DNA of 54,239 bases from an uncultured Bacteroidia bacterium (GCA_902789915.1 CADAPW010000001.1:1-54239), one strand, 5' to 3'; numbered from the stretch's first letter, positions 5,469-46,225 are shown. Notes: a model not told the origin generated them from the sequence alone. Numbers and translations are program-made.

Positions 5469-5473
5469 CGGAC

Positions 5474-8521: not shown

Positions 8522-8540
8522 AATTTCAGGTTTCAAAACA

Positions 8541-10826: not shown

Positions 10827-10848
10827 TTCATTAAAATAATATAAACCT

Positions 10849-11307: not shown

Positions 11308-11327
11308 TTCATAAAACAACAACCATC

Positions 11328-12713: not shown

Positions 12714-12753
12714 CACCTAACTCACTTAATATTAACAAATTAAATTAATCATT

Positions 12754-13158
12754 ATGGCTACAAGAACAGCTACAATCAATGCCGATGGCATTAAAGAACG
12801 CGAAGTCCTGTACGTAAGGTACGAACTCAACCAACAGACCGATGTCGAAGGTCAACCCACTGGCACCACCCGTGGCGGCAAGATTTACGTCAAAGTGAAA
12901 TCGACCGACGATGGCAACACGGATCTCATGGAATGGATGTGCGACACCTACATGAGCAAAGGTGGCACCATTTCCTTCCCGAACCGTCAAGGCGGTGAAA
13001 TGAAAAACCTCCAGTTTAAAGAGGGTTATGTGGTAGAGTATGCCGAAACTTACGACTCCACTAATTCACTGCTCCAGTTTGAGGAATTCACCATTTCCGC
13101 CAAAGAAATCCAAGTGGGCAATGCTCATCACAACAACCGTTGGACCATCGACAACTAA
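12754..13158 (+). CDS. tssD: T6SS tube protein Hcp (TssD), Bacteroidota type
   Basis: 134 aa with the pattern typical of Bacteroidales TssD: ...YELNQQTDVEGQPTGTTRGGKIYVKVKSTDDGNTDLMEWM...FTISAKEIQVGNAHHNNRW. Confidence 0.8.
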   Translation: MATRTATINADGIKEREVLYVRYELNQQTDVEGQPTGTTRGGKIYVKVKSTDDGNTDLMEWMCDTYMSKGGTISFPNRQGGEMKNLQFKEGYVVEYAETYDSTNSLLQFEEFTISAKEIQVGNAHHNNRWTIDN

Positions 13159-13170
13159 ATCTTCCAAAAA

Positions 13171-13217
13171 GCATGTACGGGAGAAGGTTCAGCCTTCTCC
13201 CATCATGCTTTGCCTTT
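13171..13217 (+). terminator. Hairpin plus T-rich tract after the first hcp (candidate partial terminator or attenuator)
   Basis: The structure is gcatg-tac-gggagaagg-ttcag-ccttctccc-at-catgc. It has a perfect 9-bp GC-rich inner stem at 13179-13187 / 13193-13201 and a 5-bp outer stem. It is followed by tttgccttt. Confidence 0.4.
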
Positions 13218-13231
13218 AAAATCACAACATC

Positions 13232-13675
13232 ATGGCTCTTCAAGGCAACCTTACCATAGGTGAAAAAACATACGGCGTGGTGGAATGCGTTTACGAATTT
13301 CACCAATCCATAGACGAGACGGGCAAACCCGTTTCCCGTCCCCAAGGCGGCACCATTACCTTTGTGATGCCCTCCACCAGCGATGAGGATTTGTTCTTCT
13401 ACAAATGGATGTTCAACAAAACAGAGGTACAATCTGGCTATTTCAAATTCATCGTTTATTCTAACGATAATAAGCAAAGCTTCAAGACCGTCACATTCAA
13501 AAACGCCTATTGCATAGGACTCAAAGACTATTTCAACGACAACGATAGCAAACTGATGTACACCACCATCACCATCAGTGCACAAGTTATCAATATTGGA
13601 AGGGAAAGAGGCGTTGTCAGCCGAGGCAGCAACAACAGCTTCGACAATGCCGTATTCACCAACGAATGGACCTGA
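13232..13675 (+). CDS. tssD: Second, divergent Hcp (TssD) paralogue with a C-terminal extension
   Basis: 147 aa with the same architecture as the first copy (...ECVYEFHQSIDETGKPVSRPQGGTITFVMPSTSDEDLFFYKWM...TITISAQVINIG). It carries an extra ~20-aa tail, RERGVVSRGSNNSFDNAVFTNEWT. Confidence 0.7.
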   Translation: MALQGNLTIGEKTYGVVECVYEFHQSIDETGKPVSRPQGGTITFVMPSTSDEDLFFYKWMFNKTEVQSGYFKFIVYSNDNKQSFKTVTFKNAYCIGLKDYFNDNDSKLMYTTITISAQVINIGRERGVVSRGSNNSFDNAVFTNEWT

Positions 13676-13678
13676 CAC

Positions 13679-15727
13679 ATGTCTATATCAGTAAAAAACA
13701 TAGCCGTAACCATCGACGGCACCGCTTCGTCAGGATTTGACATCACACTTGACGGCACCATGTGGCGGCTCGACAATTTCCTGCTGTCACAAAGTCTCTT
13801 GACATACAACACCTTGAGTTTTAATATGCACAAGGGGCCAGAAGAAGATGTGGAAGAGACCAGGCTATCGCTATGTAGCCAACTTATCGGAAAGGAAATC
13901 ACCCTCACCCTCGACACTGAAAACATCGAGAACCTCTCGCTTAACGCGAGCCACGAGAAAACCTCAGAAATCAGTTTCCGTGGACTTATATTTGCAGCTT
14001 CAGGCAACAGGCGAGGTGGCACTTATTCCGTTGACGTTATGGCAAAAAGCTGGGAAGCCCTGCTTGACGATGCCCCAAATTGCAAGTCGTTCGAGGAAAT
14101 GACACTAAACGACATTGTCAATGACGTCATCGATGATTACGGGCAAAACATCAATGCCGCCGTCAACGCCCGTTTCACGGACGCCATTCCCTATTGTGTT
14201 CAATACAACGAGACCAATTACAAATTCCTGCAAAGATTGGCCAGAAGATACGGGGAATGGCTCTACAACGACGGCGGACAAATGGTGTTTGGCAATCTCA
14301 TCAGCCAGGATACCGTTAGTCTCGACTACCCCAGCAAGGACATCCCATCCTATAATGTGGAACTGAAGATGCAACCCGTGGCCTTCCGTCACATCGCATC
14401 CTCATACAACGCCTTCGACGCCACTGAGAAAGACGGTCTCGATGAAATGCAAAGGCAATATAACGACCTGAATGAGAGTGTGTTTGAAGCTTCACAAAAG
14501 TGCTTCACCAAACCTACGCTTCAAAACCTGCATTCAGGCGGTTTCGCCGACGAAGACGGTCGCGAAACCATCCTCAACGTCTCTACAAAGACCCAAGCCC
14601 GAGGCGAAAAGGCGGGTATGCTGACCTACTCTGGCAGCACCTACTGCTCTAAATTAAAAATTGGGACGACATTGGTGATTGTTGACAACTTCATCAGCGA
14701 CAGCATTACCAACGCAAAGAGCAATGTGGAGCAAGACGAAATACTCATCACCGAGTTGGTTCATTCCTTCTTTGCCGATGAGACCTATAACAACCGTTTC
14801 GTCGGTATTCCTGCCGCTTGCGACTTCCCGCCCTACGCCAACAGCGATGTGTATCCTGTGGCGCCATCGTGCCGCGCCCGAGTGACCGACAATGAAGACC
14901 CAATGGACTTGGGGCGTGTCCGTGTGCAGTTCGATTGGCAGGCCCAGTTGGACGAGGGCATGATGACCCCTTGGCTCCGCATCGCCCAACCCTACGCTGG
15001 TGGCGGCAAGGGATTCAGCTTCATCCCTGAAATCGGTGAAGAAGTGATGATAGACTTCGAGGGCGGCAATGCCGAGCGGCCTTATGTGAAAGGCACATTA
15101 TTTAACGGGATAGACGACCCCGACCCTGCTTGGTTGCCCAACGGCAACAACAGCAACCAGATAAAAGCCATCCGCACCCGCAACGGCCACACCATTGAGA
15201 TACACGACGAGGGCAACGATGGATACATCCGGATATACGACAACGAAAAGGAAAACTACATTTTGACCTTCTCCACCGACCGCAAGCTTATCATGCTTGA
15301 ATCGACGGGCAATATCGAGTTATATGCCAAGAACGATATCATCATGCACGCAGGGCACGATATCATAGCTGAAGCAGACAATGACATTTCAGAGACTGCC
15401 CACAACGACATGTTCCTCGCTGCTGACAACGACATGCAGCGTACGGCAGACAACGATATTCGTGAGCATGCAGGCAATGACCGAAACACTAACATCGACC
15501 GCAACGACTCGCTGACGGTGAGCGAGAACCAGTTCATCAAAGTAGACGACAACAAGGACGAGCAAATAGCTCACAAACTACAAATCACGGCAGAGAATAT
15601 CCGTGAGGAAGCGAAAAACCAACTACTTGAGTACTCGAAAACACATCATGCCAAAGCCGATAAGGAGATGGCACTCAATGCTGGAATGAAGATCGACATC
15701 AAGGCCGCCATGGTAAAAACCAATTAA
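13679..15727 (+). CDS. tssI: T6SS spike protein VgrG (TssI)
   Basis: 682 aa. The gp5 OB-fold signature reads DPMDLGRVRVQFDWQ...WLRIAQPYAGGGKGFSFIPEIGEEVMIDFEGGNAERPYV. A period-8 beta-helix repeat block runs from about nt 15326 to 15613 (AKNDIIMH AGHDIIAE ADNDISET AHNDMFLA ADNDMQRT ADNDIREH ...). Confidence 0.85.
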   Translation: MSISVKNIAVTIDGTASSGFDITLDGTMWRLDNFLLSQSLLTYNTLSFNMHKGPEEDVEETRLSLCSQLIGKEITLTLDTENIENLSLNASHEKTSEISFRGLIFAASGNRRGGTYSVDVMAKSWEALLDDAPNCKSFEEMTLNDIVNDVIDDYGQNINAAVNARFTDAIPYCVQYNETNYKFLQRLARRYGEWLYNDGGQMVFGNLISQDTVSLDYPSKDIPSYNVELKMQPVAFRHIASSYNAFDATEKDGLDEMQRQYNDLNESVFEASQKCFTKPTLQNLHSGGFADEDGRETILNVSTKTQARGEKAGMLTYSGSTYCSKLKIGTTLVIVDNFISDSITNAKSNVEQDEILITELVHSFFADETYNNRFVGIPAACDFPPYANSDVYPVAPSCRARVTDNEDPMDLGRVRVQFDWQAQLDEGMMTPWLRIAQPYAGGGKGFSFIPEIGEEVMIDFEGGNAERPYVKGTLFNGIDDPDPAWLPNGNNSNQIKAIRTRNGHTIEIHDEGNDGYIRIYDNEKENYILTFSTDRKLIMLESTGNIELYAKNDIIMHAGHDIIAEADNDISETAHNDMFLAADNDMQRTADNDIREHAGNDRNTNIDRNDSLTVSENQFIKVDDNKDEQIAHKLQITAENIREEAKNQLLEYSKTHHAKADKEMALNAGMKIDIKAAMVKTN

Positions 15728-25352: not shown

Positions 25353-26533
25353 ATCCGCAAAAGACCATCTTACTTGCCTTCGTCCTAATTTCTTGCCTGA
25401 CAGCTAGCGCACGTCAAGTGACCGACACTTTATATTCTCCGCAAAAAGACAGGGTGATTGTCACTTACGACATGGTCCAAAAAAACGGCAAGGTTGAGAT
25501 ACGCTTCCTTGATGCGAAGAAAAAACTTGGTGCGGCCAATAAAGGGCAACACAAAGACATGTCAAAAATCGTAGTCATGTTTTTTGATCGCATTGGCTCT
25601 TTTAAAGGCCTCACCCTGAAAGGTTTGGGACCTTCCATGTTTATGGTACCTTCTGATATCGAATACGAAAGGTCTGAAGACGGTTATTTCATCATAGGTC
25701 AAGATGCCGCATTAACATTCAACGCAGATCTTACAAAGTCCACTAACTTGTCCATCCCCTTGTTTCTCGCAGAATATGAGCGGAAAAGCCATTACAAGAT
25801 TTTCGCCCCATGCGGTAACCTAGACATCATGATTGGCATTCCCAGACCGCAAGCGCAAAACAACGAAGAAAAGACAAACGAGACATTTATCCCTCTGGAA
25901 ATTGAAGATGCGCTCTCTGATACCGACGCGGAAGCCTTGACCAGTGTAAACTATATCATGGAACAGCTCTCGGAAATAGAGAAATTGCCTTTCAGCGAGA
26001 TGTTCATCAACGAGGTGGAAACGCTGAAGAAGATGAAATTCAAAGTGGAAAACAAAGATGTGGCTTCAAGAATCCAAGAGGCTTTAGAGGCTTTTGCTAA
26101 CAAGAAAGAAGCATTGGAAGCCCTTGCCGCTCAAGAAGCCCTCGCTGCTCAACAAGAAGCCGCCAAGCAAGACAGCATCGCCAAAGAAGAAGCCCGTCAA
26201 CAGCAAGAAGCCAACGCCGCTCTCGCCAAGGAAAAAGAGGACAAGGAAAAGAAGCAAACTATCTGGATGATTATAGGTGGCGTCTTATTGGCCATCCTAC
26301 TCTTTGTGGGCAACCAAGTCATGCAAAGCATACGTAGCAAAAAGACACAACGCAGCATGATGCAAATGCAACAAAACGCCGTCAACCAAGCCAAAAACAA
26401 GACAGCCAGCGCAATCCGTAAGGAAACAAGTCAAGTGGTAGGACAAACCAAACAAAAAGGGAAGGATCTGCTACGCGACAACACAGGCAAAATCATCAAA
26501 GGAAAAGGCAATAAAAAGAACATATCCATCTAA
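25349..26533 (+). CDS. Signal-peptide protein with a coiled-coil and a C-terminal transmembrane anchor (unknown function)
   Basis: 394 aa. It has an ATGA overlap with the previous gene. The signal peptide is MNPQKTILLAFVLISCLTASA. An Ala/Gln/Glu-rich coiled coil (EALEALAAQEALAAQQEAAKQDSIAKEEARQQQEANAALAKEKEDKEKK) is followed by the TM IWMIIGGVLLAILLFVGNQV and a basic tail. Confidence 0.45.
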   Translation: MNPQKTILLAFVLISCLTASARQVTDTLYSPQKDRVIVTYDMVQKNGKVEIRFLDAKKKLGAANKGQHKDMSKIVVMFFDRIGSFKGLTLKGLGPSMFMVPSDIEYERSEDGYFIIGQDAALTFNADLTKSTNLSIPLFLAEYERKSHYKIFAPCGNLDIMIGIPRPQAQNNEEKTNETFIPLEIEDALSDTDAEALTSVNYIMEQLSEIEKLPFSEMFINEVETLKKMKFKVENKDVASRIQEALEAFANKKEALEALAAQEALAAQQEAAKQDSIAKEEARQQQEANAALAKEKEDKEKKQTIWMIIGGVLLAILLFVGNQVMQSIRSKKTQRSMMQMQQNAVNQAKNKTASAIRKETSQVVGQTKQKGKDLLRDNTGKIIKGKGNKKNISI

Positions 26534-26538: not shown

Positions 26539-28218
26539 ATGAAACCCCTTCGGACTTTACTATTTACCATTGCGGTGTTCTTCTTCTTTGGACCATTTGC
26601 ACATGCCCAAAACACTTCCATAACAAGAAACAAAGACGGCTCCATCGACAAGGAAATCGTCATCAAAGAATTCAATTCTTTACTTGACACCTTGACGCAA
26701 TATCCCCAAAAGGACGAGGAATCCAATGACCTCATCAAAAATTATCTTTCTGGATTGTTTCCATATCCAGAGAATGTCAAAATCAGAGACAGGGAATACG
26801 ATGGCCTCAACCAAGACAAAGCCTACACTCTCGAGGAACAAGACCAAATCAACAAAAATTGCTACGATGAACTAGCAAATATCCTGTACCAAAAAAGACT
26901 ATCACAGCAAGAGACAATTGGTGAAATAGATGATAACTCCTCTAATTATTTAGATAAATGGAAATGGTTGCTAATAATACTGATATGCTGCTTGGCGGTG
27001 CTCATCGTGATTCTCATCATCGTGATTAGCCAATCAAAAAGCAAAAAGGCAAAGCGTGTACCCCAAAACATTGTGGTGAACCCAACAACCACAAACGAAA
27101 ACGACACGGGCATTATTGTGCGGCGTAAAACCACTTCCGTGATGCGCAAACAAAGTCTCAATGACGCTATTGGCAACAACAACTACATGATCATTGACTG
27201 CCAAGAGTTCTGTAATGATTCCTCGGTAAGGAGAATGTATATCAAGAATAGTTGTATCAAAGACATCTATAATATGTATGCCGAAGACCTGCGCAATCCC
27301 AACAACCCCAAAGAAGACGGTTGTATGGTCCTCGGTCGATGGGTACACGATGACAAGAGTGACAGCTACGATGTGTCTTTGGAAGAGATTGTCCTACCAG
27401 GCGACGATGCTATTTTCTCCGAATATGAGTTGAATTTCGGGGGAAAAATAAAACTGAGGGTTTCCGAGAAACTGAAGAAACTCCGCCGTGATACTGAATT
27501 GCAATACGATCTCACCTGTTGGGTACATTCCCATCCTGGTCTTGGTGTTTTCTTCAGCAACTCCGACTGCAACGTGCAGACACAGTTGAAGCATCCTACT
27601 CATCCTAATTTCCTGACCGCCATCGTTATCGACATTCTTACCCCGCAGCAGGAATTAGGCATTTTCACATACAAACACGACTCCAGCATCATCTCAAAAG
27701 CCGAGTTAAAGAAACTCTATTCTTTGGAGGATTGGTATAAATGGGCTTTGGAAAGCGAACGCCATGCATTCAAGCATGAAGACCATTACAACACTTTGGC
27801 AAACGCTTCAACACGGCTATCCTATTGCCACAGCATTGAGCTTAATAACAGCGTCATCATCGACATCTGCATGCTGACAGATTATCCTGAAGGCGAAACT
27901 TTGAGGATGATACACGGTTTTATCAACAATTCGTCGGACATGACGGAGTATGTGGCGGTTAAAATGAGCGACAATGTCTCCTTATCCGACAACGAGTTCA
28001 TCGGAGCATTCATCGTTGAATCGCATTGCAGTATTCCTTCCGTTAGGAAAGCGCTCACCAACTATCTGGGCCAAATCAAGTTCGTGTTGGTGTATTCCAC
28101 CACAGATGGCATACTGACCTCCATTCCTATCACAAACAATGATTTATGCATCGACCAAACCTGTTATGGAACACAAAAACTTGAAGACTTAAAGATATGG
28201 ACAAGAAGAAAAAGATAA
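26539..28218 (+). CDS. Membrane-anchored JAB/MPN+ (JAMM) metallopeptidase, candidate de-conjugating or processing enzyme
   Basis: 559 aa. It has a signal peptide (MKPLRTLLFTIAVFFFFGPFAHAQ) and the TM WKWLLIILICCLAVLIVILIIVISQ, followed by SKSKKAKR (positive-inside, so the C-terminal part is cytoplasmic). The complete JAMM motif is E282/E283 (nt 27382-27387) ... WVH330SH332PGLGVFFS340NSD343 (nt 27526-27567), which is HxHx7Sx2D. Confidence 0.8.
   Translation: MKPLRTLLFTIAVFFFFGPFAHAQNTSITRNKDGSIDKEIVIKEFNSLLDTLTQYPQKDEESNDLIKNYLSGLFPYPENVKIRDREYDGLNQDKAYTLEEQDQINKNCYDELANILYQKRLSQQETIGEIDDNSSNYLDKWKWLLIILICCLAVLIVILIIVISQSKSKKAKRVPQNIVVNPTTTNENDTGIIVRRKTTSVMRKQSLNDAIGNNNYMIIDCQEFCNDSSVRRMYIKNSCIKDIYNMYAEDLRNPNNPKEDGCMVLGRWVHDDKSDSYDVSLEEIVLPGDDAIFSEYELNFGGKIKLRVSEKLKKLRRDTELQYDLTCWVHSHPGLGVFFSNSDCNVQTQLKHPTHPNFLTAIVIDILTPQQELGIFTYKHDSSIISKAELKKLYSLEDWYKWALESERHAFKHEDHYNTLANASTRLSYCHSIELNNSVIIDICMLTDYPEGETLRMIHGFINNSSDMTEYVAVKMSDNVSLSDNEFIGAFIVESHCSIPSVRKALTNYLGQIKFVLVYSTTDGILTSIPITNNDLCIDQTCYGTQKLEDLKIWTRRKR
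27526..27567 (+). other. JAMM zinc-site motif HSHPGLGVFFSNSD
   Basis: Read codon by codon, from cat at 27526-27528 to the Asp codon at 27565-27567. Confidence 0.8.
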
Positions 28219-30575
28219 GTAAACTGAAAGCCTTGGCATTAGCCACATTATTCGCTTTGACCTCTGCAGCTTATGCACAAGATGTCAAGGAAATACAATT
28301 CTGCGACAAAAAATACCTGCCCGACAACGACAGCATCACATTATTCCTGAAAGTCCTCAATAGCCACAACCAGTCCGCAGATGTTGACACTACTATCCTT
28401 AAACAACGCCTGACGATTACGGAAGACGGCACCCCTATTCCAAGGGAAAAATACGAGATTTGTCCCCTAACCTCAGGACAACGCATCCCGGCCAACTACA
28501 CTTTCTCCGTCCTAGTCGACCTGAGCATACCTGAAAACGGCAAAGGCCAAATCTACGACGCGGTGAAAAATCTAGTAGAAAGTGCCCACGACAGTTGCGT
28601 CTATCTCTCGTTTTTCGGTGACAAAGTGGGGCAAAGCTTATTGGTCACAAAACAGAACTATCCCGACCTCAAAGAGCAGTTTCTTTTTACTGCCAATGAA
28701 AAATGTTTTTATAGTGCGCTTTACGCCAAAATTGCTGAATTTAACTGGCTGAATTCACCCTTGGAAGACATTATCAACACGGAAGACAATTACACAAAGA
28801 TCGACGCCATTTCCGTAAAAGCCAAAGAAAACATTGATAAGAATATTTTGTTTGTCTTCACAGAAGGCAACACGCTTCCGAAAATTGAACAAATCAGTTA
28901 TCACGAGGTAACAGAATACCAAAACGATGCTTCTCGTGTCGTTCCCAAGATTTATGCCTTATTCTACGATGCTGGAAACGGTATTGATGACATGGTAGAA
29001 CTAACCTTACGAGGTGTGACCAATCCCAACATTGCCGACCGTCAAGGTGCCTTCATGCCTTCAAATGATATTCATAGCATTATCGAGAACTTTGAGCAAG
29101 CCGTCAAAAACGAAATGTATGATTTCGCTTTCACTTATCAAGTGCCCGAAGACAAGACTTACAAAGGAAAGGTTCAATATGAGGCGCTTTGGGACGAGGA
29201 AAGCTATGGTTTTGGTGCCTTTTCCATCGGTACAGAAGAACAAGTATGGCCTAAACGCGAACAGAAAGCCAACGATTGGATTGTCAAATATTTAATTGCC
29301 CTGTTGATTACGCTGCTCACCATCTTATTCTTCATCATTGTGACGAAAGTCATCATTCCTGGAATAAAGTCGTTGACTTTCTCATTGAAACACTATAAGA
29401 AATACAAACCTGAAGCAAACGTGCAGAAACGCGTGTGTCACTATTGCCGCCGCGAGATCATGCCAGGCGACCCCGTAGTGACCAAGTGCAAACACATCAT
29501 GCATTTGGAATGCTGGAAAGAAAACGGCTACAAATGCTCAGAATATGGACAAAACTGTAAGGAAGGCATACAAGAGCACGTCCATTGGAGAGACGTATTC
29601 AGCCTTAGTTCGCTTCGCGATTGTTACCAAACCATAGCGGGCATCTTGGCTGGTCTTGTCAGCTGGATTATATATAATCTGCTAGGAGACGGGGCTTTTG
29701 GAGGTTTGTCACGAGCCATTGTCAATACATTTTACAACAAAGACGAGCTACTTAATGGCTTGACGACGGAATGTACCGCCAAAGTGTCATCCTTCCTGAC
29801 CATTGGTTTACTATTGGCTTTCTTCTTGTCGCTCATTTTCCGTTATTTTGATGGTGTACGAAAAAAGGACTGGAAATCATTATTGAAGACATTTGGCTGG
29901 TCGTTGGTATCAGGACTCATCGGCATGGCGGCTTTCGCCGTGGGAGCCATTATTCTTTGCCTATTGCTCTCGCCAGAAGACACATATATCCATTGGGCGT
30001 ACTCCATCCCCGCATACTTGCTGTTCTCAGTCTGCGCCTCACTCAGTCTCACCATCAAGTCGACCATTCCGGCGAAAAGTGCCTTGATTGGAGGTCTTAT
30101 TTCAGCTGTAATTGGTTTCATCGTCTTGTATTTTTCCAACATTACAAGCGCACGTCGTGGCTGGATGAACATGCTTCTCGACTTTGTCATCTATGGTGGT
30201 GGCCTTGGAGCCTCATTGGTTACAGTCCGCATGTTGGCTGAGAAATACTATCTAGTCATTAAGAACGGAGTCAAAGAAGGCCAACGCATCCCCATCCACA
30301 AATGGATGAATGCCACAGGTGGTGGCAATAAAGTGACCATTGGTATGACTGAACGCTGCGAAATCCAAATGACATGGGAAAAAAGCAACAAAGTTGCCAA
30401 AGAGCATGTGCAACTTTATGTAGACCACACCCGCTCTCAAGCCATGCTTAAGCCTATGGCGACAAAGGTAATATATAACTCTCGGGCGGAACTTCCCTTA
30501 AACAAACCTGTTGGACTGTCCAACAATGACACTTTCACTGTGGGTGACACCATTTTCCAATATGTTGAGAACTAA
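28197..30575 (+). CDS. Polytopic membrane RING-H2 E3-like protein with a periplasmic vWA-like domain and a C-terminal FHA-like domain
   Basis: 792 aa. Signal peptide: MDKKKKISKLKALALATLFALTSAAYA-QD. Residues ~95-230 resemble a vWA fold with a degenerate MIDAS (FSVLVDLSIPENG ... VYLSFFGDKV ... NILFVFTEGN). The TM at 361-387 is followed by the basic KHYKKYKPEANVQKR. The RING-H2 is C414-x2-C417-x13-C431-x-H433-x2-H436-x2-C439-W-x6-C447-x6-C454 (CHYCRREIMPGDPVVTKCKHIMHLECWKENGYKCSEYGQNC). I count about six further hydrophobic segments (477-678). The FHA-like end is YLVIKNGVKEGQRIPIHK...NKVTIGMTERCEIQM...VAKEHVQLYVDH...VIYNSRAEL...LSNNDTFTVGDTIFQYVEN. Confidence 0.75.
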   Translation: MDKKKKISKLKALALATLFALTSAAYAQDVKEIQFCDKKYLPDNDSITLFLKVLNSHNQSADVDTTILKQRLTITEDGTPIPREKYEICPLTSGQRIPANYTFSVLVDLSIPENGKGQIYDAVKNLVESAHDSCVYLSFFGDKVGQSLLVTKQNYPDLKEQFLFTANEKCFYSALYAKIAEFNWLNSPLEDIINTEDNYTKIDAISVKAKENIDKNILFVFTEGNTLPKIEQISYHEVTEYQNDASRVVPKIYALFYDAGNGIDDMVELTLRGVTNPNIADRQGAFMPSNDIHSIIENFEQAVKNEMYDFAFTYQVPEDKTYKGKVQYEALWDEESYGFGAFSIGTEEQVWPKREQKANDWIVKYLIALLITLLTILFFIIVTKVIIPGIKSLTFSLKHYKKYKPEANVQKRVCHYCRREIMPGDPVVTKCKHIMHLECWKENGYKCSEYGQNCKEGIQEHVHWRDVFSLSSLRDCYQTIAGILAGLVSWIIYNLLGDGAFGGLSRAIVNTFYNKDELLNGLTTECTAKVSSFLTIGLLLAFFLSLIFRYFDGVRKKDWKSLLKTFGWSLVSGLIGMAAFAVGAIILCLLLSPEDTYIHWAYSIPAYLLFSVCASLSLTIKSTIPAKSALIGGLISAVIGFIVLYFSNITSARRGWMNMLLDFVIYGGGLGASLVTVRMLAEKYYLVIKNGVKEGQRIPIHKWMNATGGGNKVTIGMTERCEIQMTWEKSNKVAKEHVQLYVDHTRSQAMLKPMATKVIYNSRAELPLNKPVGLSNNDTFTVGDTIFQYVEN
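29436..29558 (+). other. RING-H2 finger (C414 to C454)
   Basis: Cys/His codons checked directly: tgt 29436, tgc 29445, tgc 29511 (C439), tgc 29535 (C447), tgt 29556 (C454). The last ligand pair is spaced C-x6-C rather than the canonical C-x2-C. Confidence 0.7.
30246..30572 (+). other. FHA-like domain (residues ~684-792 of the RING protein)
   Basis: The strand pattern is that of FHA domains. However, the canonical pThr-binding residues are substituted: GR becomes GM, SRxH becomes AKEH, and NG becomes YN. Phosphopeptide binding is therefore not assured. Confidence 0.5.
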
Positions 30576-30586: not shown

Positions 30587-31786
30587 ATGGAAAAGGAGAA
30601 CAAATACGAATGGGGTGAAGGTGTTTTTACTTTGCTTTCTTGGTTTAAGAAAGAAAAGGTGAAAAACGCCAGAATTCTTGTGGCTGGTGCTGGTGCATTG
30701 GGTAATGAAGTGGTGAAAGATTTGGCGTTATTCGGAGTCGGACACATCTTTGTGGTGGATTTTGACAAGATTGAACTATCCAACCTTACCCGATCGGTAT
30801 TGTTCAGAGAAGAAGACGCTTACAGTCATTCATACAAGGCTGACATCGCAGCCAAACGAGCCATGGAAATCAATCCTCAAATCAAGGTTGTGCCTATCGT
30901 TGGAAACCTTTTCTCGGAAGTCGGTTTCGGTATCTATCGTTCGGTTGATGTCGTCATAGGATGTCTCGACAGCCGCATTGCACGCTATCTGCTTAACCGC
31001 CTATGCATGCGCGCCGGCAAGACTTGGATTGACGGTAGTATTGAGAACCTAACTGGTGTGGTGAAAGTGTTTACGCCTGGTATGAATTGTTACGAATGCG
31101 GTTTGTCGCGCGAAGAGTTCAACCACATCATGCTCCGCACGGGATGCGCTGATGTGGTGCGTAACCAAAGTTCGGCGGGCAGGGTGGCCACTACGCCCAT
31201 CAGCGCATCCATTATCGGTGCCATGCAAGTGCAAGAAGCCATGAAAGTTATTCACTCCGATACGGAAAGCGCTGCACAATTCAAGACACTGGAAGGGAAA
31301 ATGTTGCGTTACGAAGGTCTGACCAACAGTACCAACATCTATAAGTTTTCCTCATGGAAAAAAACATGCCCCTCTCACGAACGCTGGGAGCCTGTCATAG
31401 AAGGGAAAAACCTATCAGCCACTATGACCGTAAAGACCTTTCTTGCCAAACTCAAGATATTGCTTGGAGTCAAAACCTTGGAAATCAACATGTGCAACAA
31501 CAAATTTGTGGACAAGATTGTTTCCGACAAGCCAGAAAAAGAATTTGTAGTCATGATTCCAGAATCAAAGCTGAACGAACTCATCAACGAAAATGCCGAA
31601 CTCAAAAAACTTAGTTACATCACTTTGTTCCACAAATCGTTCTACGAGAATATAGACCTCGATTTCCCATACCAGGACCTTACACTTCAACAAATCGGCA
31701 TTCCTTTGTTTGACGTGGTACAAGTCAGCACCGAGAAAGGAGTGTTTTATGTAGAACTCAGTGGTGATGCCGCAACTTTTAAATGA
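30587..31786 (+). CDS. E1-like adenylating/activating enzyme (ThiF/MoeB/HesA superfamily) with an extra C-terminal domain
   Basis: 399 aa. Rossmann loop: ARILVAGAGALGNEV (GxGxxG at nt 30686-30703). Arg-finger motif: DKIELSNLTRSVLF. Mg/ATP Asp region: VVIGCLDSRIARYLLNRLC. Other motifs are GVVKVFTPGMNCYECG (CxxC), crossover-loop Cys187 (LRTGCADV, tgc at 31145-31147), TTPISASIIGAMQVQEAMKVI and C261-P-S-H264. Residues ~275-399 lie outside the adenylation fold. Confidence 0.85.
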   Translation: MEKENKYEWGEGVFTLLSWFKKEKVKNARILVAGAGALGNEVVKDLALFGVGHIFVVDFDKIELSNLTRSVLFREEDAYSHSYKADIAAKRAMEINPQIKVVPIVGNLFSEVGFGIYRSVDVVIGCLDSRIARYLLNRLCMRAGKTWIDGSIENLTGVVKVFTPGMNCYECGLSREEFNHIMLRTGCADVVRNQSSAGRVATTPISASIIGAMQVQEAMKVIHSDTESAAQFKTLEGKMLRYEGLTNSTNIYKFSSWKKTCPSHERWEPVIEGKNLSATMTVKTFLAKLKILLGVKTLEINMCNNKFVDKIVSDKPEKEFVVMIPESKLNELINENAELKKLSYITLFHKSFYENIDLDFPYQDLTLQQIGIPLFDVVQVSTEKGVFYVELSGDAATFK

Positions 31787-31793: not shown

Positions 31794-32672
31794 ATGCTTC
31801 CAAAGAACATCCCCGACGACATCAACGTAGAAGTCCTTCTTTCATATTTGCAAGAAGGGTCGTATAAGGTGATGTTCAACGGAATGCATAAGCGTAATGC
31901 CTACAATGACATTCTGGAGATTACAGAAGAGAACGGCTCCTTGATGCTAACTTTAGGTCGGGGAAGCCTGTACAACAAGTTGCCTGAACTGTTGTTTCAT
32001 CCCATCGACCGTTTCGACAACCTGCCTGCTCAAAACGAGAAAGAAAGGTTTCGCGAAGAATATGAGGCTCAAACTGCCGAAATTAAGAATGCACGCAAAT
32101 TCTTTGCCCCAATAGACCTCATGCTACTCAAGCTGCGCATGATGGCTAGAGAAAAGCTGGATATTTACGCCACATCCGACAAGGTCTTGATGGATATTCT
32201 CGGTGATGAACTCACCAAAGAGCAAAAACAAAACCGCTTTTGCCGTCAAATACTGCCTTTCCTGCCTTTCTGCAAATACATCAGAGGTAACCGAACCCTT
32301 CTTACCATGATGCTTCGCAAAGCCTTAAAAGAAGAGAATCTAGGTATCGACATCAGCGAAAAACCGCATGAGACAATCGACCTTAATCCCAGATACGACA
32401 CCTGCCTTGGCGAGAAACTTGATTCTCTTTATGTAGACAACACCTTTAACGAGTCCGTTCTGACCTACGATATCCATTATTGGTCGGAAGAAGAGTGCAA
32501 CGAGCATTTCTTACGATTCATCGATGAAATGGAGACCTTTCGTTTGTTCATCCAAGACTATTTCATGTCTCTGGATGCCATCTTATGTTTCAACATCTGT
32601 CACGACAGCGAGTCAACCATCCTGTCAGATGATATATCCTACCAATATTTGAATTATAACACGAATCTATAA
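31794..32672 (+). CDS. Candidate T6SS baseplate subunit TssG
   Basis: 292 aa, 7 nt after the E1 stop. The size fits TssG. There is loose similarity to TssG patterns (VEVLLSYLQEG ..., LTLGRGSLYNKLPELLFHPI). TssG is otherwise missing from a locus that has TssE, TssF and TssK-like genes. Weak call. Confidence 0.35.
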   Translation: MLPKNIPDDINVEVLLSYLQEGSYKVMFNGMHKRNAYNDILEITEENGSLMLTLGRGSLYNKLPELLFHPIDRFDNLPAQNEKERFREEYEAQTAEIKNARKFFAPIDLMLLKLRMMAREKLDIYATSDKVLMDILGDELTKEQKQNRFCRQILPFLPFCKYIRGNRTLLTMMLRKALKEENLGIDISEKPHETIDLNPRYDTCLGEKLDSLYVDNTFNESVLTYDIHYWSEEECNEHFLRFIDEMETFRLFIQDYFMSLDAILCFNICHDSESTILSDDISYQYLNYNTNL

Positions 32673-36260: not shown

Positions 36261-37103
36261 ATGAATCCTCTTAGTGAAAAACACCTACAACAGTCCATCC
36301 ACTTATCCGATGTCCATGTTGACACGGCAACGCTGAAAACGAAAACGCTAAAATCACTCAGGGAACTTGGTCCCCAAGCTGACAACGAGTCCGATATTGA
36401 TGTCAGAGCTGCCGCTGCCATGTGCCAATATGCTTATTTTATACTAAGTCCTGGCAATAGTCCGAAAGCGGATTTAATAGATGGCTGGAAGCCTTTACTG
36501 AATGATTCTGAGGTTGACAAGCTGATAGTTCCAGGGTTTCATATGAAACTACAGAACAAATCAAACGGCTTCAGTTCCATGTTTTTCAAAAAGCAAGCCG
36601 ATGGCATTCAATATTATGCCTATTGTACGGTAGGTACAGATGAATTAATAGACTGGGTCTCCAACGGTACCCAGTTTGTCTCAGGACTCGCGACTCAATA
36701 TACCTATTCGGTCCAACTAGCCAAACAAATTGACAGCGCCATTGGCGGCAAAGCCGTACTTTGGTTCATTGGGCACTCTCTTGGCGGAGGCCTTGCTTCT
36801 AATAATTCACTAGCCACCGGAAGACATGCCATCACTTTTAATGCTGCAGGCCTAAATCCTCTACGAGTCAATGCCACATTATTGTTGAACAATGGGAAAG
36901 ACCTTTTCCATCCCATAAAAAGGACAAAACAAATTCACGCTTTCGTGTTAGAGGGCGAGATACTCAACTCTTTCCTCCGTTATTTTGGACAAAGTGCCTA
37001 TGGAGACAAACATGTCATTGACTTTAAACACGATGAAGTGGATTCCTTTAAAAGGCATGCGCTGACGACCGTTTTGGACAAATGGGGAATGAAACACGAT
37101 TAA
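36261..37103 (+). CDS. Class-3 lipase-like alpha/beta hydrolase (GHSLGG); candidate T6SS lipase effector or accessory esterase
   Basis: 280 aa with no signal peptide. Motifs are ...YYAYCTVGTDELIDWVSN... and the nucleophile elbow VLWFIGHSLGGGLASNNS. Confidence 0.6.
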   Translation: MNPLSEKHLQQSIHLSDVHVDTATLKTKTLKSLRELGPQADNESDIDVRAAAAMCQYAYFILSPGNSPKADLIDGWKPLLNDSEVDKLIVPGFHMKLQNKSNGFSSMFFKKQADGIQYYAYCTVGTDELIDWVSNGTQFVSGLATQYTYSVQLAKQIDSAIGGKAVLWFIGHSLGGGLASNNSLATGRHAITFNAAGLNPLRVNATLLLNNGKDLFHPIKRTKQIHAFVLEGEILNSFLRYFGQSAYGDKHVIDFKHDEVDSFKRHALTTVLDKWGMKHD

Positions 37104-38105: not shown

Positions 38106-39608
38106 ATGTTAGATATTGAGCAATTCATTCAAACCGACGAACTTTTTGACGGCCATTACAGGCTGCTACGTCCGTTAAGTACCGATGGAGGAACGGCTGA
38201 TGTGTGGCTTGCCCTTGATGTGAATACCATCGACAACTACCCATCGTATGAAGAAAGCGCCCATGCCATTGATGAATCATCGGGGATGCTTGTGGCCATC
38301 AAGATATATCGTCCCAAGAACGCCCTTGATATCGAAGGCGAACAGCGTTTCCGCGAAGAGTTTAAGGTTGCCTTCAACTGTCACCACACCAACCTGCTTC
38401 AACCTACAAGTTTCAACATCTACAAGGAAATGCCCTATCTTGTGCTTCCCTATTGTGAAGCAGGTTCATCAGAACAATTCATAGGGAAAAAACTTCCTAC
38501 CGAAACCGTTTGGAAATTCATCCTTGAAGTAGCTTCGGGCCTTGATCGGCTTCACTCCAATCATCCCCAAATCATCCATCAAGACATCAAACCCGCAAAC
38601 ATCCTTATCGACAGCAACGGCAATTTCACCATCACTGATTTCGGTATCAGCACCAAAAAATCGGACGGACACGATAGTTACTATGATGATGAAAATAGCG
38701 GCACCTTTGCCTATATGGCACCAGAACGTTTCGAGAACAATGCCAAGCCTTCTCCTCAAAGCGACATTTGGGCTTTCGGTGCCACACTTTGTGAGATACT
38801 TACCGGTTCGCTTCCTTTCGGTGAAGAAGGGGGAAAAGCCCAAGCCGAGGGTCTCGGAGTCGCTCCCCCACTCAAAGGTTTGCCAAGAAGTATACAAAAT
38901 CTTATATTGGCATGCCTCCAACTTGAACCTAAAAAACGGCCTTCTGCTCATGAGATCGTGGAGGCGGCACAAAAACGGAGATTCGGCATCAGACCCAACA
39001 AGAATTTGACTTTGTATCTCACTTGTGGCATACTCATTTTGCTTGTGGCTATCATCTTTATTCTGATACCTAAACAGAAAAACGTCCCCAACGGCGAAAA
39101 CGTTGTAAATAATTATAATCAAGCCGTCCAACTTTTATTGGACCCTTCTGATGCAAAAAAAGGCTGGAAAATACTCGACTCGTTAGCTTTTAAAGAAAAC
39201 GACTTTGATGCTATCTTTCTAATGAGTCGATTGTATTTCGCACCATCAGAAGATGAGGACAAGGAAAATGAAAGGATTTTCTATAACCCAGAATGGAAAA
39301 CCATGCGTGAGTACGCAGGTGTCAATACTGACTATAAAAAAGCCCATGATTTATTATGCAAGGCGTTTTCAATCAATGGAAACAATTGTGCCGTGCTTTA
39401 TGAATTAGGATGCGACTACATGTCGTTTGAAAGAGGGTGTGACCAAAACTACAATTATGCCAAATGGTGTTTGATCCAAGCCAGAGAAGTAGCCAACATC
39501 ACCCAAAATGAAAAAGCTAAAGAATATTTAAAAGTAATAGATTGTCTGGATTTTGATGCCGAACCAGAAAAACCCGAAGAATTAATGAATTCAAACGAAA
39601 TAAAATAA
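38106..39608 (+). CDS. Hanks-type Ser/Thr protein kinase, single-pass membrane protein with an extracytoplasmic Sel1/TPR-like domain
   Basis: 500 aa. Kinase motifs are VAIKIY (VAIK), the catalytic loop IIHQDIKPANILID, ITDFGIS (DFG), YMAPE and DIWAFG. The TM is LTLYLTCGILILLVAIIFILIP. C-terminal Sel1-like repeats include AIFLMSRLYF... and KKAHDLLCKAFSINGNNCAVLYELGCDYMSFERGCDQNYNYAKWCL. Confidence 0.85.
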   Translation: MLDIEQFIQTDELFDGHYRLLRPLSTDGGTADVWLALDVNTIDNYPSYEESAHAIDESSGMLVAIKIYRPKNALDIEGEQRFREEFKVAFNCHHTNLLQPTSFNIYKEMPYLVLPYCEAGSSEQFIGKKLPTETVWKFILEVASGLDRLHSNHPQIIHQDIKPANILIDSNGNFTITDFGISTKKSDGHDSYYDDENSGTFAYMAPERFENNAKPSPQSDIWAFGATLCEILTGSLPFGEEGGKAQAEGLGVAPPLKGLPRSIQNLILACLQLEPKKRPSAHEIVEAAQKRRFGIRPNKNLTLYLTCGILILLVAIIFILIPKQKNVPNGENVVNNYNQAVQLLLDPSDAKKGWKILDSLAFKENDFDAIFLMSRLYFAPSEDEDKENERIFYNPEWKTMREYAGVNTDYKKAHDLLCKAFSINGNNCAVLYELGCDYMSFERGCDQNYNYAKWCLIQAREVANITQNEKAKEYLKVIDCLDFDAEPEKPEELMNSNEIK

Positions 39609-44006: not shown

Positions 44007-44864
44007 ATGAAACTTAGGATAGTAGCCAAAACGGATGCGGGCAAGGAACGCGACCAAAACGAAGATGCTTTTATCTTCTGTCCCGATCTTTCTATCTCGG
44101 ATTGGACACTAAACAAAGCATCCGCGACTCTTGGTCCTTTTGGTTGCCTCTTGTGTGTAGCTGACGGCATAGGAGGTGCCAATAACGGAGAAATCGCATC
44201 CAGACTTGCTATAGATTCTATCAAACGATCATTTTCTGATAGTGTTGAAGTGTCTAAAGCCGCTTCTTCTGATTCAAACATCAAAGATTTCCTTACTTAT
44301 GCCGTCAAAGAAGCTGATTTGACTATAAAAAACTATGCCATTGACCACCCAGATAGCATTGGGCTTGGAACCACTATCGTCGTTTGCTGGATACTTAACA
44401 ACACTGCATACATTGCCTGGTGTGGCGACAGTAGATGTTACCTATACAATCCTAAAACAGGGCTTTTGCCTCTTACCAAAGACCACTCTTATGTCCAAGA
44501 GCTTATTGACAAAGGAGAATTGACCGAGGACGAAGCTTTTCACCACCCCGATAACAATATCATCACGAAAGCACTTGGTGATATGGATTTACAAACACTT
44601 CCTGACATTGTCACCCATGTTGTTGAACCTGAAGATACTATATTGCTTTGCAGTGATGGTTTGTGTGGCTATTGTAGCAATCAATCCATTGAAGAAGTCG
44701 TTCGCAACAATTACTCAGATATGAATCATTGTTGCAAGAAGTTGCTTCAACTTGCCTTAGATACAGGAGGATATGACAATATTTGCATAGTATTAGCTTC
44801 CTTATCAAAAAAAAAACCTGCTCTGATCAACTTTTTCAAGAATTGGATTTCACCCTCAAAATAG
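44007..44864 (+). CDS. PP2C-family Ser/Thr protein phosphatase
   Basis: 285 aa. PP2C motifs are KTDAGKERDQNEDAF, LLCVADGIGGANNGEIAS, GTTIVVCW, AWCGDSRCYL, LLCSDGL and GGYDNICIVL. It is the last gene of the plus-strand block. Confidence 0.85.
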   Translation: MKLRIVAKTDAGKERDQNEDAFIFCPDLSISDWTLNKASATLGPFGCLLCVADGIGGANNGEIASRLAIDSIKRSFSDSVEVSKAASSDSNIKDFLTYAVKEADLTIKNYAIDHPDSIGLGTTIVVCWILNNTAYIAWCGDSRCYLYNPKTGLLPLTKDHSYVQELIDKGELTEDEAFHHPDNNIITKALGDMDLQTLPDIVTHVVEPEDTILLCSDGLCGYCSNQSIEEVVRNNYSDMNHCCKKLLQLALDTGGYDNICIVLASLSKKKPALINFFKNWISPSK

Positions 44865-45001: not shown

Positions 45002-45519
45002 CCATCATAAAAACTATATCATCATGAAAAAACTCCTCCTCTCTGCGCTCCTCATGCTTTCCATGAGCGCTTTCGCCCAAAAGCAATACATCCTGCAATC
45101 GCCCGACAAGGACATCACCGTCACCATTGAGGCGGGCGAGCAACTGACATACGCCGTCACGCATGGAAACACTTGTGTGTTAACACCTTCGTCCATCGGC
45201 ATGAAACTCGCCGACGGCACTATGCTCGGCACGAAACCCGTATAAAAAGGCGCAAATCCCTGAAGTTTACAATGAGTTGGCTCTAACTTTCAAAGGCAAC
45301 TACAAGGTCTTTTTCCGCGCCTACGATGCTGGCGTGGCCTATCGTTTCGAGACCGACTTCCGTAAGCCTATCGTCATCGAAGACGAAACGGCTGACTTCA
45401 ACTTCGATGCGGATTATCATGCTCTCGTCCCGTTTGTCTTGAGACGTGCCGGACAAAAGGGTGCCCTCATCAGCCAGCAGTTCTACAGCTCGTTTGAGAA
45501 CACTTACACCGACACTATC

Positions 45520-45569
45520 TTGAGCCACATGGACCCTCAAAAGCTTGAGCCACATGGACCCTCAAAAGC
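45520..45569. repeat. Perfect 25-bp tandem duplication (2 copies) inside the GH97 gene
   Basis: The unit ttgagccacatggaccctcaaaagc occurs at 45520-45544 and again at 45545-45569. Removing one copy restores ...TDTILSHMDPQKLAFLPLLVELNDGKK... Confidence 0.95.
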
Positions 45570-46225
45570 TCGCCTTCCTGCCCTTGTTAGTCGAACTCAA
45601 TGACGGCAAGAAAGTCGTCATCACCGAAGCCGACTTGGAGGATTTCCCTGGCTTGTATCTCCGCAATGCCAACGGCAAATACGGTCTCTCCGCCGTCCAT
45701 GCCGGTTATCCCAAAGTCCGTGAACAAGGCGGTCACAACAACCTACAATGGATGGTGAAAGAACGCGAGGACTATGTGGCCAAGACCGATGGAAAACGTG
45801 CATTCCCATGGCGTATCGTCACCATCTCGGAGAACGACAAGGAATTAGCCAACAACGACTTAGTCTATCTTTTGGCCTCACCCAACCGCATCGGCGACGT
45901 CTCTTGGATTAAGCCTGGCAAGGTGGCCTGGGACTGGTGGAACTGGTGGAACCTTTACGGCGTTGACTTCGCAGCAGGCATCAACAACGAGACCTACAAA
46001 TACTTCATTGATTTTGCCAGCCAATACGGCATCGAATATGTCATCCTCGACGAAGGTTGGGCCGTCAACAAGCAAGCCGACCTCTTCCAGGTGATTCCCG
46101 AAATCAACTTACCGGAACTTGTCAAATACGGTGCCGAACGCAATGTAGGCCTCGTGCTTTGGGCCGGTTACGCCGCCATGGACAAAGACATGGAACACGT
46201 ATGCCAGCACTATTCCGAAATGGGC

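Follow-up and report, generated by a model that had tools for sequence, protein, structure and literature searches.

Results

A multidomain membrane protein at 28197-30575

We analyzed a 54,239-nt stretch of DNA from an uncultured Bacteroidia bacterium (GCA_902789915.1, CADAPW010000001.1:1-54239), hereafter the window, by which the whole stretch is meant. The subject is one open reading frame (ORF), located in a type VI secretion system (T6SS) locus beside genes for a ubiquitin-like protein (Ubl), an activating enzyme (E1), a conjugating enzyme (E2), and a JAB peptidase. The ORF was present exactly where a preliminary description, made from the sequence, had placed it. It lies within a run of approximately 30 closely packed + strand genes, and its start overlaps the stop of the upstream JAB gene by 22 nt. 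The gene and the parts of its product are listed here (aa, amino acids; TM, transmembrane helix; pThr, phosphothreonine).

28197-30575, + strand: whole ORF, ATG start, 792 aa; vWA-TM-RING-H2-6TM-FHA membrane protein
28197-28277, + strand: signal peptide, aa 1-27, predicted cleavage AYA/Q; A27 and Q28 invariant in close homologs
28278-29261, + strand: predicted periplasmic region, aa 28-355; beta-sandwich strands 32-90 and 310-344, vWA insert at approximately 100-305
29268-29354, + strand: TM1, aa 358-386, followed by a conserved basic juxtamembrane stretch, K-x-Y-K-K-Y
29436-29558, + strand: RING-H2 finger, aa 414-454, C-x2-C-x13-C-x-H-x2-H-x2-C-x7-C-x6-C, with invariant W440
29625-30239, + strand: six-helix transmembrane bundle, aa 477-681
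30246-30572, + strand: predicted cytoplasmic FHA-fold domain, aa 684-792; M717 and A734 in place of the canonical pThr-pocket Arg and Ser

The architecture (signal peptide, periplasmic beta-sandwich with vWA domain, TM, RING-H2 finger, six TM, and C-terminal FHA fold) was confirmed, every part of it being backed by sequence profiles, AlphaFold2 models searched with Foldseek, and conservation over 110 relatives. Family-wide counts refer to 110 diverse full-length representatives with identities down to 24%, close-homolog counts refer to 20 homologs of approximately 60% identity, and the Pfam scan of distant relatives covered 36 proteins.

A word-indexed search returned 717 homologs, and the best 120 of these were all full length, with identities of at least 58%. 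When 50%-identity representatives were searched exhaustively with HMMER, 355 relatives passed an E-value of 1e-3 and 89 passed 1e-30; the majority were 770-830 aa long and aligned end to end, with identities down to 24%. A relative was encoded in 111 species-representative genomes. Nearly all of the source titles were Bacteroidales (among the 80 of 111 listed), and two records of metagenome-assembled genomes were titled Firmicutes (a Lachnospiraceae bin, L019, and a Bacilli bin, L031). Carriers were found in Prevotellaceae, Muribaculaceae, Bacteroidaceae, Alistipes, and Barnesiella, and include the cultured Xylanibacter muris, Palleniella intestinalis, and Bacteroides hominis. Current labels of the family are "hypothetical" or, in a few cases (Muribaculaceae, Phocaeicola), "FHA domain-containing protein." Taken alone, the window protein had no match in NCBIfam or PADLOC, and its full-length phmmer search of the PDB gave only noise (Hrd1 RING at E 1.3); family profiles were needed.

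The RING-H2 finger

The Cys/His motif quoted in the preliminary description was literally present (C414-H-Y-C417-x13-C431-K-H433-I-M-H436-L-E-C439-W440-x6-C447-x6-C454). All eight ligands (C414, C417, C431, H433, H436, C439, C447, and C454) and W440 were invariant in the close homologs. Family-wide, the complete pattern CCCHHCCC occurred in 89 of 110 representatives, and C431, C447, and W440 occurred in all 110. The Trp that had been called typical of RING-H2 fingers is indeed invariant after ligand 6, but it sits at +1, whereas +4 is usual for RING-H2. Ligands 1-7 fit the canonical RING-H2 spacing C-x2-C-x(9-39)-C-x(1-3)-H-x(2-3)-H-x2-C-x(4-48)-C-x2-C, and the HMMER alignments of the RING profile to solved RINGs end at ligand 7.

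The sub-threshold Pfam matches of the window protein were zf-RING_5, Prok-RING_1, and zf-RING_2. Prok-RING_1 (PF14446) scored 17.1 bits (E 5e-3), below its gathering threshold of 29.1 bits, and a 99%-identical protein carries a precomputed PF14446 match. Among the distant relatives, zf-RING_2 was matched by 22 of 36 and Prok-RING_1 (E < 0.01) by 9 of 36. The family profile of aa 396-470 matched the solved RING-H2 fingers of Pirh2 (4e-5), RNF165/ARK2C (5e-4), and RNF13 (4e-3), and further matches were RNF24, RNF126, Arkadia, Hrd1, AMFR, and ZNRF3. The best Foldseek matches of a RING-only AlphaFold2 model were RNF38, RNF13, ARK2C, RNF12, and RMR1 (probability up to 0.99). The quoted motif is thus conserved in its ligands and matched by RING-H2 profiles and folds.

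The family has kept the positions at which eukaryotic RINGs contact E2 or E2~Ub. A hydrophobic residue between ligands 1 and 2 was found in 104 of 110 representatives, Pro after ligand 7 in 80, and Lys after ligand 8 (the linchpin position, K455 in the window protein) in 49. All four ligands of zinc site 1 (positions 414, 417, 436, and 439) were lost together in 12 of 110 representatives (D/T...S/T), with site 2 retained. This concerted loss resembles the kind of decay seen in U-boxes and may represent its counterpart in a prokaryotic RING.

Predicted topology

Kyte-Doolittle hydropathy identified a signal-like N-terminus ending at AYA/Q28, a strong TM at 362-386, and six hydrophobic segments at 478-677. 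AlphaFold2 placed helices at 358-399, 477-496, 516-551, 559-590, 600-619, 626-650, and 655-681; an additional helix at 502-512 is too short to span the membrane. The TM, the basic stretch after it, and the approximately six hydrophobic segments downstream of the RING that had been described before were thus recovered. With a cleaved signal peptide, one TM ahead of the RING, and six helices behind it, the protein is predicted to have its vWA region in the periplasm and its RING and FHA domains in the cytoplasm, on the same face, as the preliminary description had proposed. The loop charges mostly agree. Loops assigned to the cytoplasm contained five K+R in 14 residues (551-564) and one in 6 (620-625), and loops assigned to the periplasm contained three in 31 (499-529) and none in 11 (591-601); the periplasm-assigned loop 649-658, with two K+R in 10 residues, does not fit cleanly.

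The periplasmic vWA domain

Residues 100-305 were modeled as alternating strands and helices, with predicted local distance difference test (pLDDT) values mostly of 84-94. Foldseek matched the N-terminal domain to integrin I domains (1jlm, template modeling score 0.61; 1n3y), integrin beta subunits, ANTXR2, and the vWA protein of the archaeal ArnAB complex, and Pfam recognized VWA (PF00092) in 15 and VWA_2 in 8 of the 36 distant relatives. The metal ion-dependent adhesion site (MIDAS) was not intact in the window protein, which reads D108-L-S110-I-P112 and T222-E223-G224. The consensus of the distant relatives is "LVDxSxS" and "LTDG," and relatives carry DxSxS and [ST]DG, with a complete MIDAS in only approximately 20 of 110 representatives. 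The earlier assignment of a vWA-like extracytoplasmic domain with a degenerate MIDAS (DLSIP, TEG) was correct. As to its companion suggestion, that the protein could sense the periplasm, metal-dependent ligand sensing is doubtful because the MIDAS is degenerate in this clade.

The C-terminal FHA fold

In the full-length AlphaFold2 model (mean pLDDT 80), residues 684-791 form a beta-sandwich. Its top Foldseek matches, all with probability 1.0, were CEP170, DgcB (template modeling score 0.8, root mean square deviation 2.5), Rad53 FHA1, GarA, MDC1, and Ki-67. The C-terminal profile matched the FHA domain of DgcB (9e-6), CHFR (2e-3), Ki-67, Rad53, and Dun1, with EssC and RNF8 weaker. Polyubiquitin also appeared among the matches of this profile and was rejected as an artifact in which nine repeat matches of 3.5 bits were summed. 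Pfam FHA (PF00498) was found in 12 of the 36 distant relatives (best 3e-8), and 4 of 36 matched the cytoplasmic FHA family of YscD from the type III secretion system (T3SS; Yop-YscD_cpl, PF16697). Profile and fold together support the FHA-like beta-sandwich that had been noticed at the C-terminus.

The further claim that this domain reads a phosphothreonine mark did not find such backing. In a profile alignment, G716-M717 aligned with G-R81 and A734-K735-E-H737 with S95-R96-R-H98 of GarA. Neither the Arg of the G-R loop nor the Ser of S-R-x-H, the residues that bind pThr, was present in the window protein; in its clade, M717 was nearly invariant and A734 was invariant. Family-wide, 50 of the 110 representatives have K at position 717, 33 have R, and 4 have M, and at position 734 there is A in 59 and S in 11; G-R/S-x-x-H is retained in one clade, of the P0127 type. 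Because Met717 replaces the phosphate-contacting Arg and Ala734 replaces the Ser, phosphothreonine reading is doubtful. The fold is that of an FHA domain, and classical pThr recognition by the window protein is unsupported by its residues.

Gene neighborhood

The ORF is an integral, syntenic part of a T6SS locus, a context that the preliminary description did not include. Other features of the locus are listed in order.

7898-44864, + strand: T6SS locus, approximately 7.9-44.9 kb of the window
Head of the locus, + strand: NusG-like gene
8460-15727, + strand: upstream core of the T6SS with ClpV, TssB (by position only), TssC (Pfam 3e-131), two Hcp, and VgrG
Downstream of VgrG, in order: DUF4280 PAAR-like toxin, Tle1-like lipase, DUF2931
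Between DUF2931 and the Ubl: surface protein sorted by the type IX secretion system (T9SS), then coiled-coil outer-membrane-like protein
23279-23605, + strand: Ubl, 108 aa, YukD/ubiquitin-like, ending ...PIAG and then stop (free C-terminal Gly)
23626-24300, + strand: E2, UBC core, HPN motif and catalytic Cys in WHPNIRSSGSFKGHVCL; eukaryote-type YP...WHPNI...C core
24297-26533, + strand: proteins of 351 aa and 394 aa, conserved together and secreted or anchored in the membrane, the latter with a coiled coil and a C-terminal TM
26539-28218, + strand: JAB/JAMM peptidase, N-terminal signal/TM, TM at aa 140-165, motif HSHPGLGVFFSNSD; membrane-anchored
30587-31786, + strand: E1, ThiF/MoeB-type adenylation domain (ThiF 3e-50) and a C-terminal extension of approximately 135 aa
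31794-36255, + strand: 292-aa conserved protein, then the TssK, TssE-like, and TssF-like baseplate genes
31794-32672, + strand: the 292-aa protein itself, cytoplasmic, between E1 and TssK
36261-37103, + strand: lipase-like gene, 280 aa, GHSLGG motif, in a variable slot between TssF and the glucosaminidase
After the lipase-like gene and before the kinase, + strand: glucosaminidase-LysM
38106-39608, + strand: receptor-type Ser/Thr kinase with cytoplasmic kinase domain, TM at aa 303-325, and periplasmic C-terminal domain
Between the kinase and the PP2C, in order: WG-repeat protein, outer-membrane beta-barrel, InlB-repeat protein
44007-44864, + strand: PP2C phosphatase, last gene of the operon

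The gaps across the Ubl/E2/JAB/792-aa protein/E1 module were -71 to 73 nt. Members of the Ubl family matched Pfam YukD (3e-4) and ubiquitin, and the motif of the C-terminal strand, LLDYNVQPGDHLHL, resembles that of ubiquitin, LSDYNIQKESTLHL. The polyubiquitin scores of the Ubl profile were discarded, since they are inflated by summed repeats (for a single ubiquitin, E was no better than 0.1-1); the protein is accordingly called a Ubl from the LLDYNVQPGDHLHL-type motif, the Pfam YukD and ubiquitin matches, the size, the position, and the C-terminal Gly. One locus (L049) contained a second Ubl copy whose reading frame continues past the position of the Gly. The E1 matched the E1-E2 (Cap2-like) models of PADLOC (2e-13). 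Otherwise, PADLOC matched nothing among the eight module proteins except for a weak PD-T4-6 match on the 394-aa protein.

The 292-aa protein, for which no family match was found, may represent either a TssG that has diverged or an adaptor for the Ubl system. The 280-aa GHSLGG protein, with homologs in only 6 of 84 related loci, is probably an effector and not TssG. The kinase and the PP2C form a PpkA/PppA-like pair without a canonical FHA reader. An extracellular contractile injection system or phage tail in place of a T6SS was ruled out by the presence of ClpV and TssK, and a eukaryotic contaminant was ruled out by the operon structure, the C-terminal T9SS domains, and the synteny in Bacteroidales.

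Outside the operon, an IS4-type transposase (DUF4372 and DDE_Tnp_1) lies directly upstream of the T6SS locus (6540-7685, + strand). A GH97 glycosidase (45277-46997, + strand) was broken over three reading frames, and a sugar transporter of the major facilitator superfamily (MFS; 49955-51209, + strand), situated within a rhamnose cluster (RhaB at 47156, RhaA at 48700, aldolase at 51301), was broken over two. The split GH97 and MFS genes are pseudogenes or assembly indels.

Conservation of the linkage

Synteny among close relatives was assessed by tblastn with the window proteins in 84 loci from at least 80 Bacteroidales species. The JAB peptidase and the E1 were each found in 82 loci, the E2 in 76, and the Ubl in 74. 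The 292-aa, 394-aa, and 351-aa proteins were found in 77, 73, and 72 loci, respectively; TssK was found in 76, TssE in 73, TssF in 70, and the glucosaminidase in 66. The kinase was found in 62, although it lies at the edge of the examined flank. The JAMM motif was present in 79 of these loci and the HPN..C motif of the E2 in 76, and of 126 small ORFs directly upstream of the E2, 123 had AG or PG as their last two residues.

Members of 34% identity also lie between Hcp/VgrG/PAAR and E1-TssK-TssE-TssF. A clade of 25% identity (80 metagenome loci, L085-L164, mostly from rumen and gut) showed another order: E1, a 262-aa protein, TssK, TssE, TssF, Ubl (ending PG), E2, two secreted or anchored proteins, the RING protein, Hcp, and VgrG. 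Many of its contigs are truncated, and E2 was found in 59 of the 80 loci, TssF in 51, E1 in 46, and TssK in 40. A PEGA-domain protein is encoded upstream in this clade (for example, L088 at 1697-12412). Among the members examined, none was found outside a T6SS context.

Comparison with other T6SSs

Between 7.8 and 45 kb, no ORF of at least 150 aa other than that of the 792-aa protein had four or more hydrophobic segments, and in 61 of 83 long loci no second polytopic ORF of this kind was found within 10 kb. Pfam and NCBIfam recognized no TssN, TssO, TssP, TssQ, or TssR in the locus, and the protein matched no named Tss family in either database. The membrane complex of the canonical Bacteroidota T6SS-iii is TssN/O/P/Q/R; TssN, with five TM and a cytoplasmic Ubl domain, is the product of a gene between tssK and tssG and makes contact with TssK, and TssR is a lipoprotein with a vWA domain (PMC10781749). 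Because it is the sole polytopic protein and TssN-R were not recognized, the 792-aa protein is the obvious choice as a candidate inner-membrane core for this class of T6SS. Judged from the published descriptions, it resembles TssN as a polytopic inner-membrane protein with a cytoplasmic domain and a gene near tssK (two genes away, that of TssN being adjacent), and it resembles TssR in its periplasmic vWA domain; it joins periplasmic vWA, TM bundle, and cytoplasmic domain in one protein. It differs from TssN, with five TM and a built-in Ubl, in carrying RING and FHA domains, and TssR is a lipoprotein. The parallel suggests that a free, conjugatable YukD-like Ubl may stand in place of the fixed Ubl domain of TssN.

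Gut Bacteroidales T6SSs have been described as three architectures, GA1-3 (PMC10942478, PMC13633076). The locus type described here does not match the published descriptions of these; it has a NusG-like head and contains T9SS-sorted, InlB-repeat, outer-membrane beta-barrel, and glucosaminidase-LysM proteins inside the operon. The Bacteroidales T6SS literature to 2026 describes GA1-3 only, with no mention of ubiquitin-like, kinase, or FHA components, and no relevant report emerged when T6SS was searched together with ubiquitin, RING, or FHA for Bacteroidales.

Threonine phosphorylation controls T6SSs through PpkA-Fha1-PppA in Pseudomonas aeruginosa (H1-T6SS) and through TssL-Fha in Agrobacterium. 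The present cluster is similar in having a receptor Ser/Thr kinase, a PP2C, and one FHA protein, and PpkA has a periplasmic vWA domain. It differs in that the vWA domain is on the FHA/RING protein and not on the kinase, the FHA pocket is degenerate, and a Ubl conjugation set has been added. A cytoplasmic FHA fold without pThr residues on a membrane component is also found in YscD/PrgH of the T3SS and EssC of the type VII secretion system, but these belong to other machines and have neither RING nor vWA.

Discussion

A putative ligase and scaffold of a T6SS class

We lean toward reading the 792-aa protein as an inner-membrane RING-H2 ligase (E3) and scaffold of a Ubl conjugation system within a distinct class of Bacteroidales T6SS loci. 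The domain identities, predicted topology, conserved ligands, and conserved linkage to the Ubl, E1, E2, and T6SS genes were computed here; from them we infer E3 activity, a substrate, a scaffold role, and an FHA domain that would act as a phospho-independent docking module. An E3 role, in line with the E2 recruitment proposed in the preliminary description, is the natural reading because an E2, an E1, and a Ubl are encoded beside the RING protein. The T6SS context shifts the likely role of the protein from generic envelope signaling to T6SS assembly or regulation.

The following sequence of events can be envisaged. After cleavage of the signal peptide, the beta-sandwich and vWA domain would lie in the periplasm, TM1 and the six-helix bundle in the inner membrane, and the RING-H2 and FHA domains in the cytoplasm. 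The neighboring E1 would adenylate the Gly-terminated YukD/ubiquitin-like protein and hand it over to the neighboring UBC-type E2. The RING would then recruit E2~Ubl at the membrane and promote transfer of the Ubl to lysines of a nearby protein, the acceptor most probably being a baseplate or membrane component of the T6SS or the ligase itself, and the membrane-anchored JAB peptidase encoded directly upstream would remove the mark. The FHA fold would serve as a cytoplasmic docking module, like the degenerate FHA domains of YscD/PrgH and EssC, and not as a classical pThr reader in this clade. The protein probably would assume part of the membrane-complex role that TssN and TssR have in the canonical T6SS-iii. 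In analogy to PpkA/PppA of Pseudomonas, the kinase and the PP2C probably act as a gate on firing or assembly, and their presence makes a checkpoint of the PpkA/PppA type likely for the locus.

Several observations weigh against this reading. The window protein itself had no Pfam FHA match at E ≤ 1 and no VWA match, and all RING models were sub-threshold, so its domain calls depend on family profiles and predicted structure. The last pair of zinc ligands is C-x6-C and not C-x2-C, which departs from the canonical spacing. The RING-only model was of moderate quality (pLDDT 67), and its Foldseek E-values were weak (0.02-0.3); such values are expected for 75 residues, and the set of matches was nonetheless consistent. 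The absence of TssN-R is deduced only from missing HMM matches, and divergent homologs may be present among the unassigned neighbors. In the 25%-identical clade, the JAB motif was found in 0 of 34 long loci, and no kinase was found within 10 kb. Reversibility and phospho-control would thus not be universal, because this clade has neither JAB nor a nearby kinase. Since the linkage of Ubl, E2, E1, and baseplate persists across two gene orders, and that of JAB and kinase does not, the invariant core of the system consists of the Ubl, E2, E1, the two envelope proteins, the RING protein, and the baseplate.

Alternative explanations

In the preliminary description, the protein was likened to RNF8, CHFR, and Dma1, and one alternative extends that likeness to function: a phospho-dependent signaling E3 in which the vWA domain senses an envelope cue, the FHA domain reads the pThr made by the kinase, and both gate E2 recruitment. 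We consider it unlikely. The same operon does contain a receptor Ser/Thr kinase, which recurs in most of the close loci, and a PP2C, and no FHA fold other than that of the 792-aa protein was detected in the locus. Either K or R occupies the "GR" position in 83 of 110 representatives, one-third of the distant relatives pass Pfam FHA, and T6SS threonine-phosphorylation pathways with an FHA reader are known in Pseudomonas and Agrobacterium. However, the window clade, which retains the kinase, has Met717 and Ala734 nearly invariantly, and the largest distant clade, with the motif G-K-S ... A-P-x-Q, has no kinase nearby; thus, the presence of a kinase and an intact pThr pocket are uncorrelated. The MIDAS on the sensing side is degenerate as well (P112, E223). 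A simple step in which the FHA domain reads pThr is disfavored because the pocket is degenerate in exactly the clade that retains the kinase. Homology to RNF8/CHFR was rejected on the reversed domain order and the degenerate pocket. What stands of the parallel is the shared FHA/RING pair; the reversed order and the polytopic architecture give no indication of common descent.

The protein could instead be a purely structural membrane subunit of the T6SS in which the RING is a zinc-stabilized interaction or oligomerization module without ligase activity, the Ubl, E1, and E2 acting elsewhere without an E3. It is the sole polytopic protein of the cluster, FHA and vWA domains are common structural parts of secretion machines (the vWA of TssR; the Yop-YscD_cpl matches of 4 of 36 members), approximately 11% of the family is without all four site-1 zinc ligands, and no RING E3 takes part in conjugation by the bacterial Bil and Cap2 systems. 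Nevertheless, this explanation appears quite improbable, given that the RING is among the most conserved segments family-wide, that features typical of E2-binding RINGs are retained, and that linkage to E2, E1, and Ubl persists through the rearrangement of gene order; concerted loss of site 1 with site 2 kept would be U-box-like decay, which retains E3 function in eukaryotes. We regard as highly improbable an independent Ubl/E1/E2/RING/JAB module that merely rides in the T6SS island and serves in anti-phage defense (like Bil, Bub, or CBASS-Cap2) or in Hrd1-like membrane quality control. The E1 match to PADLOC Cap2-like models and the match of the RING profile to Hrd1 would agree with it, as would the phage-defense role of the characterized bacterial Ubl systems (PMC10557695, PMC11601603), but the module is inserted among T6SS structural genes in a packed operon, its linkage to TssK/E/F holds in two gene orders and over identities of 25-100%, PADLOC recognized only the E1 adenylation domain and, weakly, the 394-aa protein among its eight proteins, and no examined member lies outside a T6SS context.

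If the protein is indeed an E3 and scaffold of the secretion system, then a sharper proposal can be formulated: this T6SS class may require endogenous Ubl conjugation to build or reset the connection between membrane complex and baseplate. The RING would ligate the YukD-like Ubl onto itself or onto the baseplate and thereby create, by post-translational means and reversibly through the membrane JAB peptidase, the Ubl docking module that is fixed in TssN. We offer this proposal as a speculative one that is unlikely to hold.

Relation to known ubiquitin-like systems

Burroughs, Iyer, and Aravind reportedly predicted in silico, in 2011, TM-containing prokaryotic RINGs beside Ub, E1, E2, and JAB (Pfam Prok-RING_1), and they are said to have proposed YukD-like Ubls as the conjugated modifier. 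The operons of that family are described as combining a RING with Ubl, E1, E2, and JAB, its bacterial versions as having TM helices, and its last ligand pair as longer than in eukaryotes. A neighborhood of this type (Ubl, E1, E2, JAB; TM helices) is present around the 792-aa protein, which differs in its score of 17.1 bits against a cut-off of 29.1 bits. The idea of a RING in a Ubl operon thus already exists. The vWA-TM-RING-6TM-FHA architecture and its embedding in a T6SS were not mentioned in the literature searched.

The characterized bacterial Ubl systems Bil, Bub, and Cap2 are soluble and have no RING. Bil and Cap2 act against phage. Complete operons in bacteria have been mentioned (PMC5654768), but the only RING-containing prokaryotic system reconstituted so far is archaeal, the cascade of Caldiarchaeum subterraneum, encoded by a Ub-E2-E1-srfp(RING)-Rpn11 operon (PMC3082918) and reconstituted in PMC5654768. 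The present locus is similar to it in its eukaryote-like five-component set within one operon, its UBC-type E2 with HPN, and its JAMM deubiquitinase. The archaeal RING, however, is small and soluble, with a C-x2-C last pair and without membrane anchor, vWA, FHA, or secretion context, and the archaeal Ub needs processing, whereas the Ubl of the window ends in Gly.

Among eukaryotic proteins, a similar layout is found in the PA-TM-RING and multi-pass RING-H2 E3s (RNF13, RMR1, ZNRF3/RNF43; Hrd1, gp78), with an extracytoplasmic binding domain, a TM, and a cytosolic RING-H2 finger. RNF13 and RMR1 were among the best RING fold matches, and Hrd1, AMFR, and ZNRF3 were among the profile matches. These proteins have a PA (protease-associated) domain and not a vWA domain, have no FHA domain, and function in endosomal sorting, Wnt receptor turnover, and endoplasmic reticulum-associated degradation. 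RNF8, CHFR, and Dma1 share the FHA and RING pair, and the FHA domains of CHFR and RNF8 were among the profile matches, but in these soluble nuclear proteins the FHA domain is N-terminal with an intact pThr pocket. In the 792-aa protein the pocket has been lost and six TM lie between the two domains. The pairing of FHA and RING is convergent, not orthologous.

Biological meaning

The hypothesis that Ubl conjugation is a component of a secretion machine is a sharp and testable one. The locus type is widespread (Prevotellaceae, Muribaculaceae, Bacteroidaceae, and rumen and gut metagenomes) and would represent a further T6SS class, without TssN-R by HMM. In it, ubiquitin-like chemistry appears to serve in assembling or controlling a bacterial nanoweapon. 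If functional, the system would join contractile nanomachines with the prokaryotic roots of ubiquitin signaling, provide a genetically tractable bacterial model of a RING-dependent, membrane-localized Ubl cascade, and place antagonism among gut and rumen bacteria under an additional level of regulation. If the proposal is true, it would be the first bacterial secretion machine under a complete, self-encoded cascade of E1, E2, RING E3, and deubiquitinase, and culturable gut bacteria would offer a setting where the targets of a eukaryote-like RING E3 cascade are native to the cell.

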